NCBI GenBank assembly: GCA_029261475.1
Contig: JAJDBG010000043.1
Span: forward strand, 1 to 60,034
From: Nitrospinaceae bacterium
Lineage (GTDB): Bacteria; Nitrospinota; Nitrospinia; Nitrospinales; VA-1
DNA: 60,034 nucleotides
Direction: 5' to 3'
Shown here: in pieces, positions 54,174 through 60,034 of the stretch
How the letters are laid out: the number at the start of each line of letters is the position of its first letter
Numbering within the stretch: position 1 is the first letter of the stretch
Translations under genes and position numbers: made by a program
The notes under the pieces: generated by a model
The model's input: the letters and a program-made list of their open reading frames with translations, nothing else
What the model was told of the DNA's origin: nothing
Database searches by the model: none

Positions 54174-54587
54174 TTAGGTTGCTTCGTTGACTGATTGCAT
54201 ATTCATAAAGGTTCGCAAAAATTTGTCTGTATTCATTTCCGCTAAACCTTTTTCATGAAAATCAGCGTCCTTAAATATTTTATCGACAGTGCCTTCACCG
54301 GAAGGATTCACTGCAAGAATATCGGCGTGCTTTGTATTGTCGAAACCGTTAAAAAGGGTTCCTGCAATTTCAGCAGGTGCCGATAGGGAAATGCACCTTC
54401 CCAAGCGAATCGATTTGGAATCATCTTTCCAATCAACAAATAGATGTTCGTTGTCAACCCGTGTTTCGGGCTCAACATCCATTTCCGAACCCAAAAGAAA
54501 TATTTTTTGATCTATTCTAACCGCGTAGACAGGTTTGAAAGTACCTTTGATCCAAACCTTCCCCTTGTCCGCTATGTGTTGGGTCAT
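54174..54587 (-). CDS. Hypothetical protein
   Basis: 137-aa ORF filling the gap between genes, normal amino-acid composition, no recognised motif. Confidence 0.65.
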   Translation of the reverse strand: MTQHIADKGKVWIKGTFKPVYAVRIDQKIFLLGSEMDVEPETRVDNEHLFVDWKDDSKSIRLGRCISLSAPAEIAGTLFNGFDNTKHADILAVNPSGEGTVDKIFKDADFHEKGLAEMNTDKFLRTFMNMQSVNEAT

Positions 54588-54735: not shown

Positions 54736-55881
54736 TTGACTAATTACGAACTATTTTATAGCAGATTGCAAAAAGATTTATCCACTCGTCGGGAAAATAA
54801 TTTATACCGTGAAACCCGCCTATCGCCAGAGGGGTTGATTGATCTTTCTTCCAACGATTACCTGCAACTCCGTACTCATCCCGCTGTTCTTGAAGGAGCG
54901 AGAAAAGCTACGGAAACTTATGGTGCCGGGAGTGGTGCATCCCCTCTTTTAACAGGGTTTAAGCCCTGTCACCAAGCCTTACTCGATAAAATTTTGGCCT
55001 GGAAAAGTAAGAAATTTGGCATGTTATTCAATACGGGTTTCATGGCAAATCAGGCCGTATTTTCACACCTCCCACAGAAAAATGATTTGATCCTTGCGGA
55101 CCGCCTGATTCATCATTCCATTGCGCAAACCTTGAATCATTCGAAAGTTCGCTTTAAAAGATACCTTCACCTTGATTTAGAGCATCTGGAACGCGAGCTG
55201 AAAAAAACACAATACGATACCGTATTTGTTGTCACTGAAAGTATTTTCAGTATGGATGGTGACTATCCCGACTTGAAGCATTTGGCAAAATTGAAAGAAA
55301 AGTACGGCTTTGTATGGATTTTAGATGAGGCGCACGGGGTCGGCGTCTATGGCGCGAGCGGAGCGGGGTTGGCCGAGGAAATGGGCGTTGGCTCTATGGT
55401 GGATGTGATGATTGGGACACTAGGTAAAGCCTTGGGAAGTATGGGTGCCTATGTTATATCCGACCGTAGCGAGATCATTGAATTCTTAACCAATACAGCA
55501 GGTGAGTACATATTTTCAACGTTTTTATGCCCTTCGGCGGCGGGTGCCGCGCATTCTGCTATTGATCTAGTCATTGCGGATAGCGATAAACGTCATTCTC
55601 TGCGTGAAAAGTCCCTTGTTTTGCGGCAAGCTCTTGTTAAAATGGGATATAATCTAATAGAGTCAGATTCTCAGATCATTCCCATTGTTTTGAATGATGC
55701 CGGACAGGCTTTGAGGATGAGTGATTATTTTTATGATGAGGGAATACAAATTGGGGCCATTCGTTTTCCGACAGTTCCCAAGGGTAAAGAGCGATTGCGG
55801 TTGTCATTGCATTCGGCTATTTCCACAGAGCAAATATCTATAATCTTAAAGTTGTTCCAAAAATGGAAATCAAAAACATAA
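54736..55881 (+). CDS. bioF: 8-amino-7-oxononanoate synthase
   Basis: DLSSNDYL, GAGSGASPLLTG, TGFMAN, ESIFSMDGD, DEAHG, GTLGKALG, AIRFPTVP..RLR. Confidence 0.92.
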   Translation: MTNYELFYSRLQKDLSTRRENNLYRETRLSPEGLIDLSSNDYLQLRTHPAVLEGARKATETYGAGSGASPLLTGFKPCHQALLDKILAWKSKKFGMLFNTGFMANQAVFSHLPQKNDLILADRLIHHSIAQTLNHSKVRFKRYLHLDLEHLERELKKTQYDTVFVVTESIFSMDGDYPDLKHLAKLKEKYGFVWILDEAHGVGVYGASGAGLAEEMGVGSMVDVMIGTLGKALGSMGAYVISDRSEIIEFLTNTAGEYIFSTFLCPSAAGAAHSAIDLVIADSDKRHSLREKSLVLRQALVKMGYNLIESDSQIIPIVLNDAGQALRMSDYFYDEGIQIGAIRFPTVPKGKERLRLSLHSAISTEQISIILKLFQKWKSKT

Positions 55882-56519
55882 CCGCGGTTTGTGGCTGGGC
55901 TTTGCCACCCAATTGGTTTGGCGAGCAGATTCAGCAAGCGTTCCCCAATAGCCGCATAAAAACCCTTTATCCAACCAACCCGTTTTGCTCTGAGTCGGCT
56001 CGTAAAGCCTTGGACGAAAACCCTGCGGATTTATACATAGGGTATTCTTTGGGAAGTTTGTGGCTGTTCACGCATCGACAGTATTTACCCTCATCGTCGA
56101 TAAAAGCCGCTATCGCTCCGATTTTGTCATTCACACATGAAGGCGATAGGGGAGGGAAAACACCAAAAACTAAATTAAAATTTTTCCTAAGGTTGCTGGA
56201 ACGCAGTTTGGAAACAGGGCAGGCGGCATTGAAAGATTTTTATTCAGTTTGTTCAGCACCTTTTCCTGACGACCGATTGATTGAAGTTCCGCAACGGGGT
56301 GTCTTGATAAAAGGACTGGAGTTTCTGGAATCTGCGTTGGCAACCCCTGCATCCACCAAAGATTTTATTGCCGTTTCAGGGGAAAAGGATGTTTTTTTAG
56401 ATTCTGAAATTTTGCGACGCTATATTCCTGGCTTACTCATAGAAAAGGCAGTGGGGCATTCGCCAGGGCCTTTATTAAGGCGTTTGGCGAAAGAATTGAG
56501 CCGGAGAAATTTATTATGA
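55863..56519 (+). CDS. alpha/beta-hydrolase, probable pimeloyl-ACP methyl ester esterase (BioH-equivalent)
   Basis: CGW oxyanion motif, GYSLG nucleophile elbow, GEKD, GHSP; lies between bioF and bioC. Confidence 0.7.
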
Positions 56520-58789
56520 AAATCCTCGGCATCGACTTCACTTCAGCTCCTAGTAGCAAGAAACTGCTTCCTTGTGTGCACAGTGTTTTTAAAAAGAATC
56601 GGAAGCTCATTCTTGAGCGACTTGATTTTTTAGCAGACTTCGAACAATTTGAACAGTTGATAGATGAAGAGGAGGGACCTTGGTTCCTCGGTATCGATTG
56701 TCCTTTAGGGCTTCCTTCCACATTTCTTTCCCAAATTTCAGATTCGCAAGTATGGAGCGACTATGTTGCATCTGTTTCAAATATGGAATGGAAAGAATTT
56801 GAATCTAAAATTAAAAGTTATAAATCCAGTCGTCCCTCTCAAAGTAAAGACAGTCTGCGACTGACTGATGAACTGGCTCGGGCACTTAGTCCATTGAAAC
56901 TTTTGAATCCTCCTTTAGCGAAAATGTTTTATGAGTTGGCACCCCGGCTATCAGGTAAAGGTGTTTCTATTTTGCCTTGCTGTCCGAGGGATGACGACCG
57001 AATCATTTTGGAGACATATCCTGCATTATTGGCACGTCGTTTCGCAGGAAAATACAAAGGAAATTCCAAGACGCAAACGAATTCGGAAATGCAAGATGCC
57101 CGAAAAGCTATATTGAAAGGAATTTGCTCCGAGGAGTTCAATGCTGAATTTGGTTTTAAGATTGAGGTTGGTGAAGAAATAATAATAAAGGCGGTGGAGG
57201 ACTCGAACGGAGATGTCCTCGATTCTGTTTTGTGCGCAGTGCAGGCGGGCTGGGCCTACCACAATAAAAGTAGAAATTATGGAATTCCAAGCAACGCTCA
57301 CCCCATCATTTCTTCAGAAGGCTGGATTGTTGATCCTCGGTTAGTCACGGAGATGGTTGCTAGTTCGTCTTCCTCCAAGGATAATTTAACTCAACTGTTA
57401 AATAAAAATTTCAATCAATCAGACCATCATGCCGTCAACTTGATGAGCCAAGTCAAAAAGCTATCCGATGTGGGCAGAGCATTGTCTGGCAAGCGTGATT
57501 TGAACGAGTTGCTGGAAAAAATAGTAACAGAATCGCGCACATTGACTAATGCCGATGGTGGAACCTTGTACATTCTTGAAAACGAATCGTTGGCCTTTAA
57601 AATTGTTCAAAACGATTCACTAAATATTTTTATGGGAGGGACGACGGGGACTGAAATAAGTTTCCCTCCTGTGCAGATGAAGAAATCCAACGTTTCTGCC
57701 TATTCTGCAATGAAGGGTATTTCGATCAACATTCCCGATGTTTATAATTATAAGTCTTTCGATTTTACAGGCCCTAGGAAATTTGACAAGGCAACAAATT
57801 ACCGCACACAATCCATGTTGGTTGTACCGATGCGAAACTATGAGGAAGAAGTCATAGGTGTACTGCAAATTCTCAATGCGCTTGATCCAGAGGATGGGAA
57901 AACGGTCATCCCCTTTTCAGAAAACCATGAAGGGCTGGTGGAGTCTTTGGCCTCGCAGGCGGCAGTTGCTCTAAGCAATGTCAATTTGATCAATCAATTG
58001 CAAAAAACCAATACCGAATTGATAACGACACGCGACCAGGCACTTGAAGCCAACCGGGCAAAGAGTGCTTTTCTTGCGAATATGAGTCACGAATTGAGAA
58101 CTCCGATGAATGCGATTCTCGGTTACAGCGAAATACTTTTGGAAGATGCCGAGGAAATGGGTCTCGATGATTTTAATGATGATCTGAAAAAAATACTTTC
58201 CTCTGGAAATCATTTACTAGGATTGATCGATGAAATTCTGGACCTTTCAAAAATAGAAGCGGGAAAAATGGAAATTTTTCTTGCTTCATTTCCAGTTCGA
58301 GAGATGGTTGCAGATGTGTTGGACAATGTGAAAATTTTAGCTCAAAAAAATGGAAATAAGCTGGAGCTGGATTGTCCGAGCGCGATTGGGACAATGACTG
58401 CAGACCCTGTTCGTGTTAAGCAAATGCTGATAAATCTATTGAGCAATGCTTGTAAGTTCACCGAAAAGGGAACGGTCACCTTAAAAATTTATCGTGAATC
58501 AATTGATAGCCAAGGATGGATATTTTTTAACGTGATTGATAACGGTATTGGCATTGAACAGAACCAGATCAAAAGGTTATTTCAAGAGTTCACGCAAGTG
58601 GATGACACCTCGACAAGGAAGGTTGGAGGTACGGGTTTAGGATTAGCTATCAGCCGACGATTTTGCCAAATGATGGGTGGCGACATTCATGTGACCAGTG
58701 AGATAGGAAAAGGTTCTACTTTCAGCATCAAATTGCCCGTGAAAATTGCGGAAACCACTCCGCTCAAAAGAAGAGCAAGCGATCACTAA
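56516..58789 (+). CDS. DUF429 nuclease-like domain + GAF + histidine kinase fusion
   Basis: aa 1-275 has [29 protein letters not shown]; GAF at about aa 325-490; H-box [12 protein letters not shown]; N/G1/G2 boxes [21 protein letters not shown]; no TM helix and no receiver domain. Confidence 0.85.
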
Positions 58790-58851
58790 AATAGCTTTTG
58801 GATTTTTATTTTTGTGCTTCCCCATCCTCAATACCTAAATATCTCTTCGTC

Positions 58852-59604
58852 ATGAAACAACCGGACCCAACCATTGCCATTGCGAAGAGCTTTTCGAAGC
58901 ATGCGGAAAGTTACGAACAGCATGCTTTGTTGCAAAAAGACATGGCTGAACAATTGACGCGGTTTCTACCTCCATCAATTCCTGCCAGTGTATTAGAAAT
59001 CGGTTGCGGTACGGGTCTGTTTACACAAAAATTAATTGGGGCAAATATTGCTCAATTGTACCTCAATGATATTTCTCCACAAATGTTGACGCGGCTTAAG
59101 TCATCATTGGCACTACCGTCGAATACGAAATTGTATTGCGGAGACGCTTGCCAACTTGATTTTCCAAGTTCTGACTTGATCGCGGCCAATGCGGTGTTCC
59201 AATGGTTTGAAAATCCTCAAGACCTTGTACGACGATTGAAGCAATTCCTGAATCCTGAGGGTCATTTGATCTTCAGTGTGTTTGGTCCAGAAACTCTGAA
59301 AGAATTTCGTCGTATTGCCAGGATCGATGGTCCTATAAGCTTGTATTCGCTAGAGCAATGGATACTTTGGTTGAAGAATGCCGGTTTCGTTGTCAAACAA
59401 AGTGAAAAGGAAATTAGAAAAACACACTGGTCCGATACACGTTCACTCATGAAAAATTTACAGCAAGTGGGTGCCGTGCCGATAAGGAAATTATCTTATC
59501 GTGAAGTAAAGAGATTGATCTCAGATTATGAAAACTCTTTTGCAACAGTCGACGGGGTTTCTTCAGAATGGGAGATTTTCTATTTCTCTGCCGTTTTAAT
59601 ATAG
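58852..59604 (+). CDS. bioC: Malonyl-ACP O-methyltransferase
   Basis: IAKSFSKHAESYEQHALLQ, LEIGCGTG, NDIS, NAVFQW, FGPETLKE. Confidence 0.88.
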   Translation: MKQPDPTIAIAKSFSKHAESYEQHALLQKDMAEQLTRFLPPSIPASVLEIGCGTGLFTQKLIGANIAQLYLNDISPQMLTRLKSSLALPSNTKLYCGDACQLDFPSSDLIAANAVFQWFENPQDLVRRLKQFLNPEGHLIFSVFGPETLKEFRRIARIDGPISLYSLEQWILWLKNAGFVVKQSEKEIRKTHWSDTRSLMKNLQQVGAVPIRKLSYREVKRLISDYENSFATVDGVSSEWEIFYFSAVLI

Positions 59605-59622: not shown

Positions 59623-60034
59623 ATGTCTTTAGAAATTTGGAAAAAAAATCTACAGGCTCTTGAAATATTCCATCCTCAATTGGCGCAACAGTTGTCTCTT
59701 GTTTCGAGTAAGGGAGCGTATAGCGCGCCACTATCCAAATCGGGAGTGCCCACACTGGTTTTCCACCCGCCTTCAGGAAACCCCAAATATTTGACCAGCT
59801 CCTATGACCCTTTGAAAGAAGCTCGGCGTACTATTGAGTCGTATTCTGAGTCTAAAATTTCATGCTACACATTCTATGGAATGAGTCTGGGACACACTTT
59901 GCTCGAATTGATTCAACGCTCGGACTCTAATGTAAGAGCCTTTGTTTTTGAGAGAGATCCTGAATTAATGCGATTGGCTATGGAGACTTTTGATTTTGAA
60001 TCAGCGATAAAAAATCAAGCCATTCGCTTTTATT
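59623..60034 (+). CDS. Second Maf/DUF115-family protein, 3'-partial (absent from the ORF track)
   Basis: Hand translation gives MSLEIWKKNLQAL...LTSSYDPLKEA...FYGMSLGH...FVFERDPEL, matching the N-terminus of 39257-40666. Confidence 0.8.
   Translation, partial: MSLEIWKKNLQALEIFHPQLAQQLSLVSSKGAYSAPLSKSGVPTLVFHPPSGNPKYLTSSYDPLKEARRTIESYSESKISCYTFYGMSLGHTLLELIQRSDSNVRAFVFERDPELMRLAMETFDFESAIKNQAIRFY

Follow-up and report, generated by a model that had tools for sequence, protein, structure and literature searches.

What sets one sensor histidine kinase apart from another is the signal that its input domains detect. The protein considered here is a predicted sensor histidine kinase of 757 amino acids (aa), encoded at 56516 to 58789 of a 60,034-nucleotide (nt) stretch of DNA from a Nitrospinaceae bacterium, and it begins with a DUF429 domain. 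In the searchable literature, only one member of the DUF429 family is characterised, namely RelZ (MS_RHII-RSD, RnhD; MSMEG_5849) of M. smegmatis, which is described there as joining a DUF429 domain to a (p)ppGpp synthetase (PMC7591505, PMC5224475, PMC4429107; Atkinson et al. 2011, PMC3153485). Full-length RelZ is reported to cleave RNA:DNA hybrids and R-loops (PMC7591505, PMC5224475, PMC4429107), while its isolated N-terminal domain (aa 1-280) is inactive and the full-length protein is needed (PMC5224475). The two proteins appear alike in design, with an N-terminal DUF429 domain of about 280 aa and a C-terminal signalling enzyme on one cytoplasmic polypeptide. They differ in their output and their hosts, that of RelZ being a RelA/SpoT-type synthetase in Actinomycetota and that of the present protein a GAF-HisKA-HATPase module in Nitrospinales. 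The only DUF429 fusions listed in the survey by Majorek et al. 2014 (PMC3985635) are those with NUDIX and with RelA/SpoT.

The stretch analysed, called the window below, is the whole of contig C43 of a 2.9-Mb, 154-contig, 87%-complete metagenome-assembled genome. Its kinase is a cytoplasmic orphan. The reading that we favour, with confidence falling a little short of even, is that of a soluble orphan kinase whose DUF429 domain senses, and in most lineages also processes, a nucleic-acid or phospho-ligand, and whose GAF domain, of the type that binds cyclic nucleotides (cNMP), provides a second input. The gene and its parts are as follows:

56516..58789, + strand: kinase open reading frame (ORF), 757 aa, ATG start, no interruption
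56516..57355 (aa 1-280), + strand: DUF429 domain, Pfam PF04250, predicted RuvC-like RNase H fold with a helical insert at about aa 68-147
57356..57496 (aa 281-327), + strand: Ser-rich linker, low model confidence
57497..57973 (aa 328-486), + strand: GAF domain, Pfam GAF E 2.4e-13, cNMP-binding sequence type
58058..58264 (aa 515-583), + strand: HisKA dimerisation/phospho-acceptor domain, Pfam E 5.6e-20, with H525
58403..58744 (aa 630-743), + strand: HATPase_c catalytic domain, Pfam E 9.6e-30

A preliminary description of this DNA had read the gene as one uninterrupted frame of 757 codons with the order DUF429, Ser-rich linker, GAF, HisKA and HATPase. This holds in full: the four Pfam domains all exceed their curated cut-offs, and the linker carries VASSSSSKD at about aa 281-290, with a predicted local distance difference test score (pLDDT) below 50 over aa 281-295 in the AlphaFold2 (AF2) model. 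In particular, the DUF429 match runs from aa 40 to aa 247 (36.8 bits, cut-off 23, E 4.4e-9) and reaches 38.6 bits in a whole-genome scan, and a search of the ESM Atlas with the N-terminal domain returned DUF429 clusters only (nearest score 0.97). No RelA_SpoT domain is present among the 7 Pfam families that match the 757-aa protein at E <= 1. The phospho-acceptor was correctly named as H525, which sits in HELRTP, and the N box (NLLSNACKF at 640), the G1 box (DNGIG at 675) and the G2 box (GTGLGL at 705) are intact, giving the complete set of boxes of a sensor histidine kinase. The kinase core is similar to those of the hybrid kinases HrmK, TorS and BarA; unlike them, the protein itself contains no receiver domain. 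The absence of a transmembrane segment and of any receiver domain or response regulator in the window had also been claimed, and both absences stand. A transmembrane sensor was rejected, the top 19-residue Kyte-Doolittle mean of 1.22 being below membrane-helix values, and a linked response regulator was rejected as well, contig C43 holding 0 of the 63 receiver-domain matches of the genome. The kinase thus lacks the adjacent cognate response regulator by which a two-component system would be recognised.

The fusion of DUF429 to the kinase is old and real. The N-terminal domain is present in 48 of the 120 genomes of the phylum Nitrospinota, in 12 of 30 genera and in 28 of 57 high-quality genomes, and its carriers are confined to families f1-f4 of one order (Nitrospinales), with none among the 18 genomes of families f5-f9. 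Open frames of at least 700 aa that carry the domain were found in 38 genome rows, some of them from genomes in one or few contigs (e.g. G077, G020), which shows that the fusion is no artefact. A word-indexed protein search, limited to 416-1325 aa, added 48 further protein clusters with the N-terminal domain, nearly all of about 750 aa with DUF429, GAF, HisKA and HATPase. A few of these clusters carry PAS plus GAF (896-1026 aa), one has PAS without GAF, and one (P0004) is labelled Ca. Nitrohelix vancouverensis, a member of the genus to which the window is assigned. Among 37 orthologues read from loci, one is a stand-alone DUF429 protein, four are interrupted by the locus end, a run of N or an in-frame stop, and the remainder are full-length fusions. 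The G100 orthologue is short, at 722 aa, owing to a run of N and not to decay. The preliminary description would have been contradicted by relatives that always encode the two halves as separate genes, and only 1 of the 37 has DUF429 on its own. The linker junction at 57330-57440, over which it had proposed that reads be mapped, is bridged by a contig of the public run X1 that spans 56723-57453 with 0 differences; the next contig spans 57418-59000, with at most one difference overall, and X1 may be the source sample of the window genome, so that it is not independent support.

An assembly chimera, or a fusion made only here through loss of a stop codon, retains on these data a vanishingly small probability. 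Such an origin could appeal to the metagenomic assembly of the window in 154 contigs and to genome G007, which holds both parts as separate genes. In the G007 locus (L044:7466-9455, - strand), the biotin gene bioF and an esterase gene are followed by a 282-aa stand-alone DUF429 gene and, 4 nt on, by a gene for a 378-aa REC-HisKA-HATPase kinase; bioC was not found in this locus. However, the core of this kinase is only 33% identical to that of the window, against 53-61% in orthologues of families f2-f4, and the G007 kinase is therefore, by sequence identity, a replacement and not a split half, which makes G007 a second, independent arrangement of DUF429 beside a histidine kinase. The chimera and the stop-loss fusion were both rejected on the strength of the fused frames in 38 genomes, the 48 fused database clusters, the synteny and the X1 contigs that cross the junction, with the caveat on X1 given above.

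The preliminary description had assigned the N-terminal domain to the RNase H fold, and the Pfam match and the AF2 model both agree with it, leaving no case for an N-terminus that matches neither DUF429 nor this fold. Built from an alignment of 30 sequences, the model of the domain is confident (pLDDT 89.7, predicted template modelling score 0.89). It lays out three strands, a helix and strand 4, then an insert of some 80 mostly helical residues, and finally strand 5 with a long helix at the C-terminal end, which is the order of secondary-structure elements of an RNase H-like core. Structural alignment with VIA-align placed RuvC (4ld0) at Z 7.7 over 145 residues with a root-mean-square deviation of 3.7, Ydc2 at Z 7.7 and the canarypox resolvase at Z 7.3, and further down phage terminase nucleases (Z ~6-7) and the RuvC domains of Cas9/Cas12 (Z ~6.4); nearly all of the top matches belong to clade D of the RNase H-like proteins. 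RuvC, Ydc2 and the poxvirus resolvases are thus the best fold matches (Z 7.3-7.7 over 126-155 residues), and the domain resembles them further in having acids on strand 1, on strand 4 and on the C-terminal helix. It differs in its helical insert and in the absence of any sequence match, Pfam RuvC being absent and the PDB sequence search empty. The domain is accordingly modelled as having a RuvC-like RNase H fold, because the structural matches, although middling in Z, are consistent with one another and with the prediction of Majorek et al. 2014 (PMC3985635) that DUF429 is RuvC-like and belongs to clade D of the RNase H-like superfamily.

The acidic residues D7, D61, E166, D233, D236 and E268 are all found where the preliminary description had listed them. 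A check of the active site in a model had been suggested along with them, and in the AF2 model strand 1 carries D7, strand 4 carries D61 at its end and the C-terminal helix carries D233/D236 at its start, which are the catalytic positions of RuvC. Eight other residues (E96, K111, R115, D118, E140, E166, E268 and W270) are invariant in 37/37 orthologues, and H525 is invariant in every orthologue in which the kinase part is present. The four aspartates behave differently. D7, D61, D233 and D236 are intact in 27 of the 37 orthologues, which are 39-73% identical to the window and comprise all those outside the genera g9 and g12, including the window and the stand-alone protein of G007. In the g9/g12 orthologues, D7 is replaced by N in 10/10 and D233 by E, A, Y, F, R or H in 10/10, while D61N occurs in 8/10 and D236N/T in 5/10. 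These ten are 33-38% identical to the window in the N-terminal domain and 66-67% in the GAF-kinase part, the corresponding values in the other families being 39-47% and 53-61%.

From this pattern of conservation, metal-dependent catalysis looks selected in most lineages, window included. Since the aspartates are replaced in all ten g9/g12 orthologues that keep the domain and the kinase, nuclease chemistry is, to judge from these sequences, not needed for the two to persist together, and the pattern fits a role in binding or sensing. The earlier label of a nuclease-like domain therefore stands for the fold and for the intact aspartates of the window; it does not stand as a secure activity, the aspartates at the RuvC positions being gone in these ten.

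For the GAF domain, a likeness to the cNMP-binding GAFs had been proposed, and the best PDB sequence matches of aa 316-495 agree: PDE5 (3lfv, 4.8e-18), CyaB2 (1ykd, 1.2e-17) and PDE2A GAF-B (1.2e-11), with an HD-GYP-type phosphohydrolase as the next match (2.3e-7). With PDE5, PDE2A and Anabaena CyaB2 the domain shares the core N-I-x-D...F...D...Y-[KR]-T-x-S. It differs from them in its setting, their GAFs regulating a phosphodiesterase or a cyclase and this one a histidine kinase. The genome encodes one class III nucleotide cyclase. As regards overall design, DevS/DosS are also soluble, cytoplasmic kinases with a GAF domain before the kinase core and no transmembrane segment; these have haem-binding GAFs and a linked regulator gene. 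The present protein differs from them by its additional DUF429 domain, its cNMP-type GAF (the DevS GAF being a weak match, E ~0.3) and its lack of a linked regulator.

The wider DUF429 family gives a further view of the domain. A profile of 30 N-terminal domains, searched against 1.84 billion representatives, found 1633 at E <= 1e-3, of which 385 reach E <= 1e-30. Among the best 150 relatives the majority are stand-alone proteins of 264-300 aa that are matched end to end, and in 62 of them together with the window D7, D61, E166, D233, D236, E268, RxTD and GW are invariant or nearly so. Stand-alone DUF429 proteins (PF04250; COG2410/COG4328/COG4923; clade D) thus resemble the window domain over their full length, in the acidic residues and in the RxTD and EGW motifs; they differ in having a single domain and in their neighbours, which are described below. 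When 10 longer relatives were scanned, an AAA_33/CPT P-loop kinase, a dCMP/cytidine deaminase and a NUDIX domain were found once each and DUF6946 twice, and the other 5 gave nothing recognisable. Fusions of 360-368 aa with a C-terminal DUF433 were also seen (L112:8001-9083, L114:8001-9107).

The genomic context of relatives was read from 80 loci of other phyla, out of 522 relatives found. A Roadblock-Roadblock-small GTPase-DUF429 arrangement occurs in 36 of them, on the same strand and with the GTPase directly upstream. In these loci (L057:1481-2941, L059, L060 and 33 more), the median distance from the Arf/Ras-like GTPase gene to DUF429 is about 16 nt, 1-2 Roadblock/LC7 genes precede, and IMPDH is often found further upstream; the whole resembles an MglA/MglB module, except for a fourth, unexplained gene. 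Loci of Methanoperedens type and of Anaerolineales (L053:6634-12166, L054, L109, L055) have the order hsdS-DUF429-hsdR of a type I restriction-modification system, and in Pseudanabaena and other cyanobacteria (L116:6213-9406, L105, L127, L111) DUF429 is immediately preceded by a gene for a 574-615-aa Ser/Thr kinase and followed, on the opposite strand, by a HepT-like RNase gene. The neighbours of DUF429 are thus signalling or nucleic-acid systems and not metabolism. A biotin linkage as a property of the family was rejected, as bioF, bioC and the esterase gene are absent within 8 kb of the stand-alone relative in every one of the 80 loci. The window domain also matches weakly the PADLOC defence candidate PDC-S44 (E 5e-6), which is a lead only.

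In the favoured reading, DUF429 would be the primary input and would engage a ligand that is polyanionic or bears phosphate; the likeliest candidate, if the analogy with RelZ holds, is a nucleic-acid structure, for instance an RNA:DNA hybrid. Binding would rely on the invariant K111/R115-x-T-D118/E140/E166/E268-G-W set, and D7/D61/D233/D236 would in most lineages, window included, also process the ligand. Through the GAF domain a small molecule, perhaps a cyclic nucleotide, would act as a further input. The two inputs would then set the autophosphorylation of H525, from which phosphate would pass to an unlinked response regulator.

Several points weigh against this reading. The structural Z values are below 8, and sugar kinases of the ASKHA type also match at Z ~6.3; a Foldseek search with the N-terminal domain gave no match at E <= 1e-3, the best being Ydc2 at E 4e-3. 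A solved structure of a close DUF429 relative was not found either, phmmer against the PDB being empty at E 10. The N-terminal domain is basic in most orthologues, which favours the reading (median isoelectric point, pI, of 9.3 in the 27 intact orthologues and of 9.1 in the 10 degenerate ones), but that of the window (aa 1-278, 56516-57349) has a pI of 5.8 and a net charge of -3, the most acidic of the 37; nucleic-acid binding by this copy is therefore awkward. In the GAF domain the NKFDE motif of cNMP-binding GAFs has K replaced by P and E by K, with N, F and D aligning (as read from the alignment by eye). RelZ and the window domain were likened by family name and design, not by sequence comparison, and RelZ (567 aa, within the searched range) is not among the 49 proteins of the word-indexed search. 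The contexts from other phyla come from few, related lineages, all 36 GTPase loci being from Ktedonobacteria or Chloroflexia. The g9/g12 clade also shows decay of the gene, which is split in G060, reduced to remnants in three genomes (G074, G053, G057) and broken by an in-frame stop in G092, so that the persistence of the domain there may reflect slow loss and not a non-catalytic function. Finally, the evidence names no ligand, substrate or partner regulator. The stop of G092 (L049:8435-10720) lies at codon 618, in the kinase, and conserved sequence resumes in frame after it; a nonsense mutation, recoding or an error of sequencing could each account for it.

The kinase gene lies among biotin genes, the features of which are:

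54736..55881, + strand: bioF-like 8-amino-7-oxononanoate synthase, TIGR00858 and Pfam Aminotran_1_2, first gene of the cluster
55863..56519, + strand: orf218, BioH-like alpha/beta-hydrolase, 218 aa, overlapping bioF by 19 nt and the kinase start by 4 nt
58798..59604, + strand: bioC malonyl-ACP (acyl carrier protein) O-methyltransferase, TIGR02072, with ATG 58853 the likelier start
59623..60033, + strand: Maf/MptE-like gene, 5' part, cut by the contig end, Pfam Maf_flag10_N

The best NCBIfam match of bioF is TIGR00858 (E 2e-109, 365.7 bits), under its cut-off of 426, and bioC matches TIGR02072 with E 1e-53 and 182.7 bits, against a cut-off of 184.95. To judge from the sequence, the true start of bioC is probably ATG 58853, about 60 nt past the kinase stop; its orthologue in L032 has 252 aa and an ATG start. 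Full-length orthologues of the Maf/MptE-like gene have 624 aa and contain MptE-like plus Maf_flag10_N (e.g. L032:11100-12974). The esterase gene and the kinase start overlap by 4 nt, which makes it likely that the kinase gene is transcribed together with bioF, the esterase gene and bioC. Between 54100 and 60034, scans gave 10 promoter-like sites, against 12.0 +/- 3.3 in shuffled sequence, and 8 terminator-like sites, against 5.3 +/- 1.8; neither kind of site was seen in the kinase-bioC spacer.

Synteny was read from 20 loci of 16-18 kb in four families. The order bioF-esterase-kinase-bioC is present in 19 of the 20, and the location within a biotin operon that had been claimed is thereby confirmed. 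The syntenic block, however, extends over about 12 genes, from a class IV aminotransferase through a DnaJ-like gene and with unrelated genes included, and position alone is therefore weak functional evidence. The Maf/MptE-like gene lies downstream of bioC in 17/20 loci, with or without the kinase. A 137-aa ORF divergent from bioF (window 54174-54587, - strand) has no family match, PH_14 appearing at E 0.14 only, and it adjoins bioF in 20/20 loci at 31-77% identity. In L045 and L046 (G020, G022), a gap of about 0.8 kb from the kinase stop to bioC leaves room for an extra small gene.

The esterase gene is found more widely than the kinase, in 82 of the 120 genomes and 20 of the 30 genera, and bioF adjoins it in all 20 kinase-centred and all 30 esterase-centred loci. 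Among the latter, bioF, esterase and bioC follow one another directly in 17 and the kinase is present in 10; the kinase slot holds DUF429 remnants in 2 (G074, with three stops, and G053, a weak fragment), and 1 locus ends too early. Because the kinase-less loci are contiguous and the remnants lie in the slot, the kinase was probably ancestral there and was lost repeatedly, an argument that rests on synteny and remnants. Biotin genes persist without the kinase, which is dispensable for the operon, and a functional link of the kinase to biotin is unproven.

The neighbouring orf218 matches nothing by sequence, whether in Pfam (even at E 10), in NCBIfam or, with a profile, in the PDB. Its AF2 model (pLDDT 92.6) shows an alpha/beta-hydrolase fold, and the top three Foldseek matches in the PDB are BioH structures, namely 4nmw (E 4.4e-9, template modelling score 0.70), 1m33 and 4etw, with a BioH-ACP complex among them. 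A triad of Ser62 (in GYSLGSLW), Asp176 and His199 is invariant in 25 orthologues. With this fold, the Ser-Asp-His triad and its slot between bioF and bioC, orf218 has the traits of the BioH type. On the modelled structure it is a probable pimeloyl-ACP methyl ester esterase and a candidate for an unrecognised family of such esterases, and it may supply the bioH function that is otherwise missing from biotin synthesis in Nitrospinales. The ORF of the biotin ligase BirA (L162:1393-2229, genome G000, contig C93) has at most 278 aa, with ligase profile positions 1-234. As read from this sequence, BirA seems to lack the N-terminal DNA-binding domain.

These data can also be read in ways other than the one we favour. 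As the second option of the preliminary description, DUF429 would be the output, a nuclease gated by the GAF ligand or by the phosphorylation state of the kinase, which we judge quite unlikely. In its favour, the window and 27/37 orthologues retain the complete acidic set, which is also conserved in stand-alone relatives, some of which lie inside type I restriction-modification operons; the weak PDC-S44 match and the need for full-length RelZ (PMC5224475) would also suit an effector. The fully conserved kinase motifs nevertheless point to phosphotransfer as the output, all ten g9/g12 orthologues keep the GAF-kinase part without the aspartates, and the locus is not a defence island. An N-terminal position is, moreover, typical for the input domains of histidine kinases, which counts against an effector role here. 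That DUF429 is a passenger, without function or in decay, on an ordinary orphan kinase regulated by its GAF domain is in our view very unlikely. The faster evolution of the N-terminal domain than of the GAF-kinase part in g9/g12, the loss of the aspartates there and the repeated loss or breakage of the gene would be expected of a passenger; the eight residues outside the RuvC positions that are invariant in 37/37, the four aspartates invariant in the 27 orthologues outside g9/g12, the retention of the domain as a separate gene in G007 and the confident AF2 model would not.

A third reading starts from the neighbourhood. The kinase would sense an intermediate or protein of the BioC-BioH stage (e.g. 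acyl-ACP), regulate biotin synthesis and take the place of a BirA repressor role that this organism seems to lack. In 19/20 loci of four families the kinase gene keeps its place between the BioH-like gene and bioC, its start overlaps the esterase gene by 4 nt, and the stand-alone DUF429 gene of G007 still follows bioF and the esterase gene. The BirA ORF, at no more than 278 aa, would leave no room for an N-terminal helix-turn-helix, and, more speculatively, the basic DUF429 surface of most orthologues would suit an acidic ACP. Against this stand the 80 loci of other phyla, none with bioF, bioC or the esterase gene within 8 kb, the 17 of 30 esterase-centred loci that lack the kinase and keep bioF-esterase-bioC intact, the synteny of the whole block of about 12 genes, which leaves position with little weight, and the lack of any promoter or terminator signal above chance separating or joining the genes. 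A biotin or fatty-acid pathway sensor thus appears to us quite improbable.

Returning to the favoured reading of DUF429 as a sensory input, the earlier remark that no characterised protein with this architecture was known to its author is correct for the exact architecture, nothing on a DUF429-GAF-kinase protein having been found in the papers searchable here; it overlooks RelZ, a characterised relative in logic. Likewise, the claim of an undescribed signalling system holds insofar as the protein is uncharacterised, not insofar as it would be unseen, as public databases already list such proteins under generic names. The protein is a new input-domain variant of a known protein kind, and its novelty is tempered by the commonness of combinatorial kinase architectures and by the existing characterisation of the RelZ analogue.

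A wider proposal, which we regard as unlikely, is that DUF429 would be a general sensor of nucleic-acid structures or of ligands derived from nucleotides, wired to at least four outputs, namely the histidine kinase, the (p)ppGpp synthetase of RelZ, the Ser/Thr kinase of Pseudanabaena and the Roadblock/GTPase module of Ktedonobacteria. The protein described here would then be the first two-component kinase with an RNase H-like input, reporting RNA:DNA hybrids or a related signal and co-gated by a cyclic nucleotide through its GAF domain, with a catalytically dead, sensor-only form in two genera. No description of an RNase H-like DUF429 input to a histidine kinase was found in the searchable literature. 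If sensing of RNA:DNA hybrids or of a ligand derived from a nucleotide proves true, genome or transcription stress, or nucleotide signalling, would be tied to a phosphorelay in marine nitrite oxidisers. The clade with D7N, D61N and a replaced D233 offers a natural control that separates binding from catalysis, and the repeated association of DUF429 with signalling proteins offers a way of testing a family of more than 1600 representatives (at 50% identity) that has no assigned role outside RelZ.

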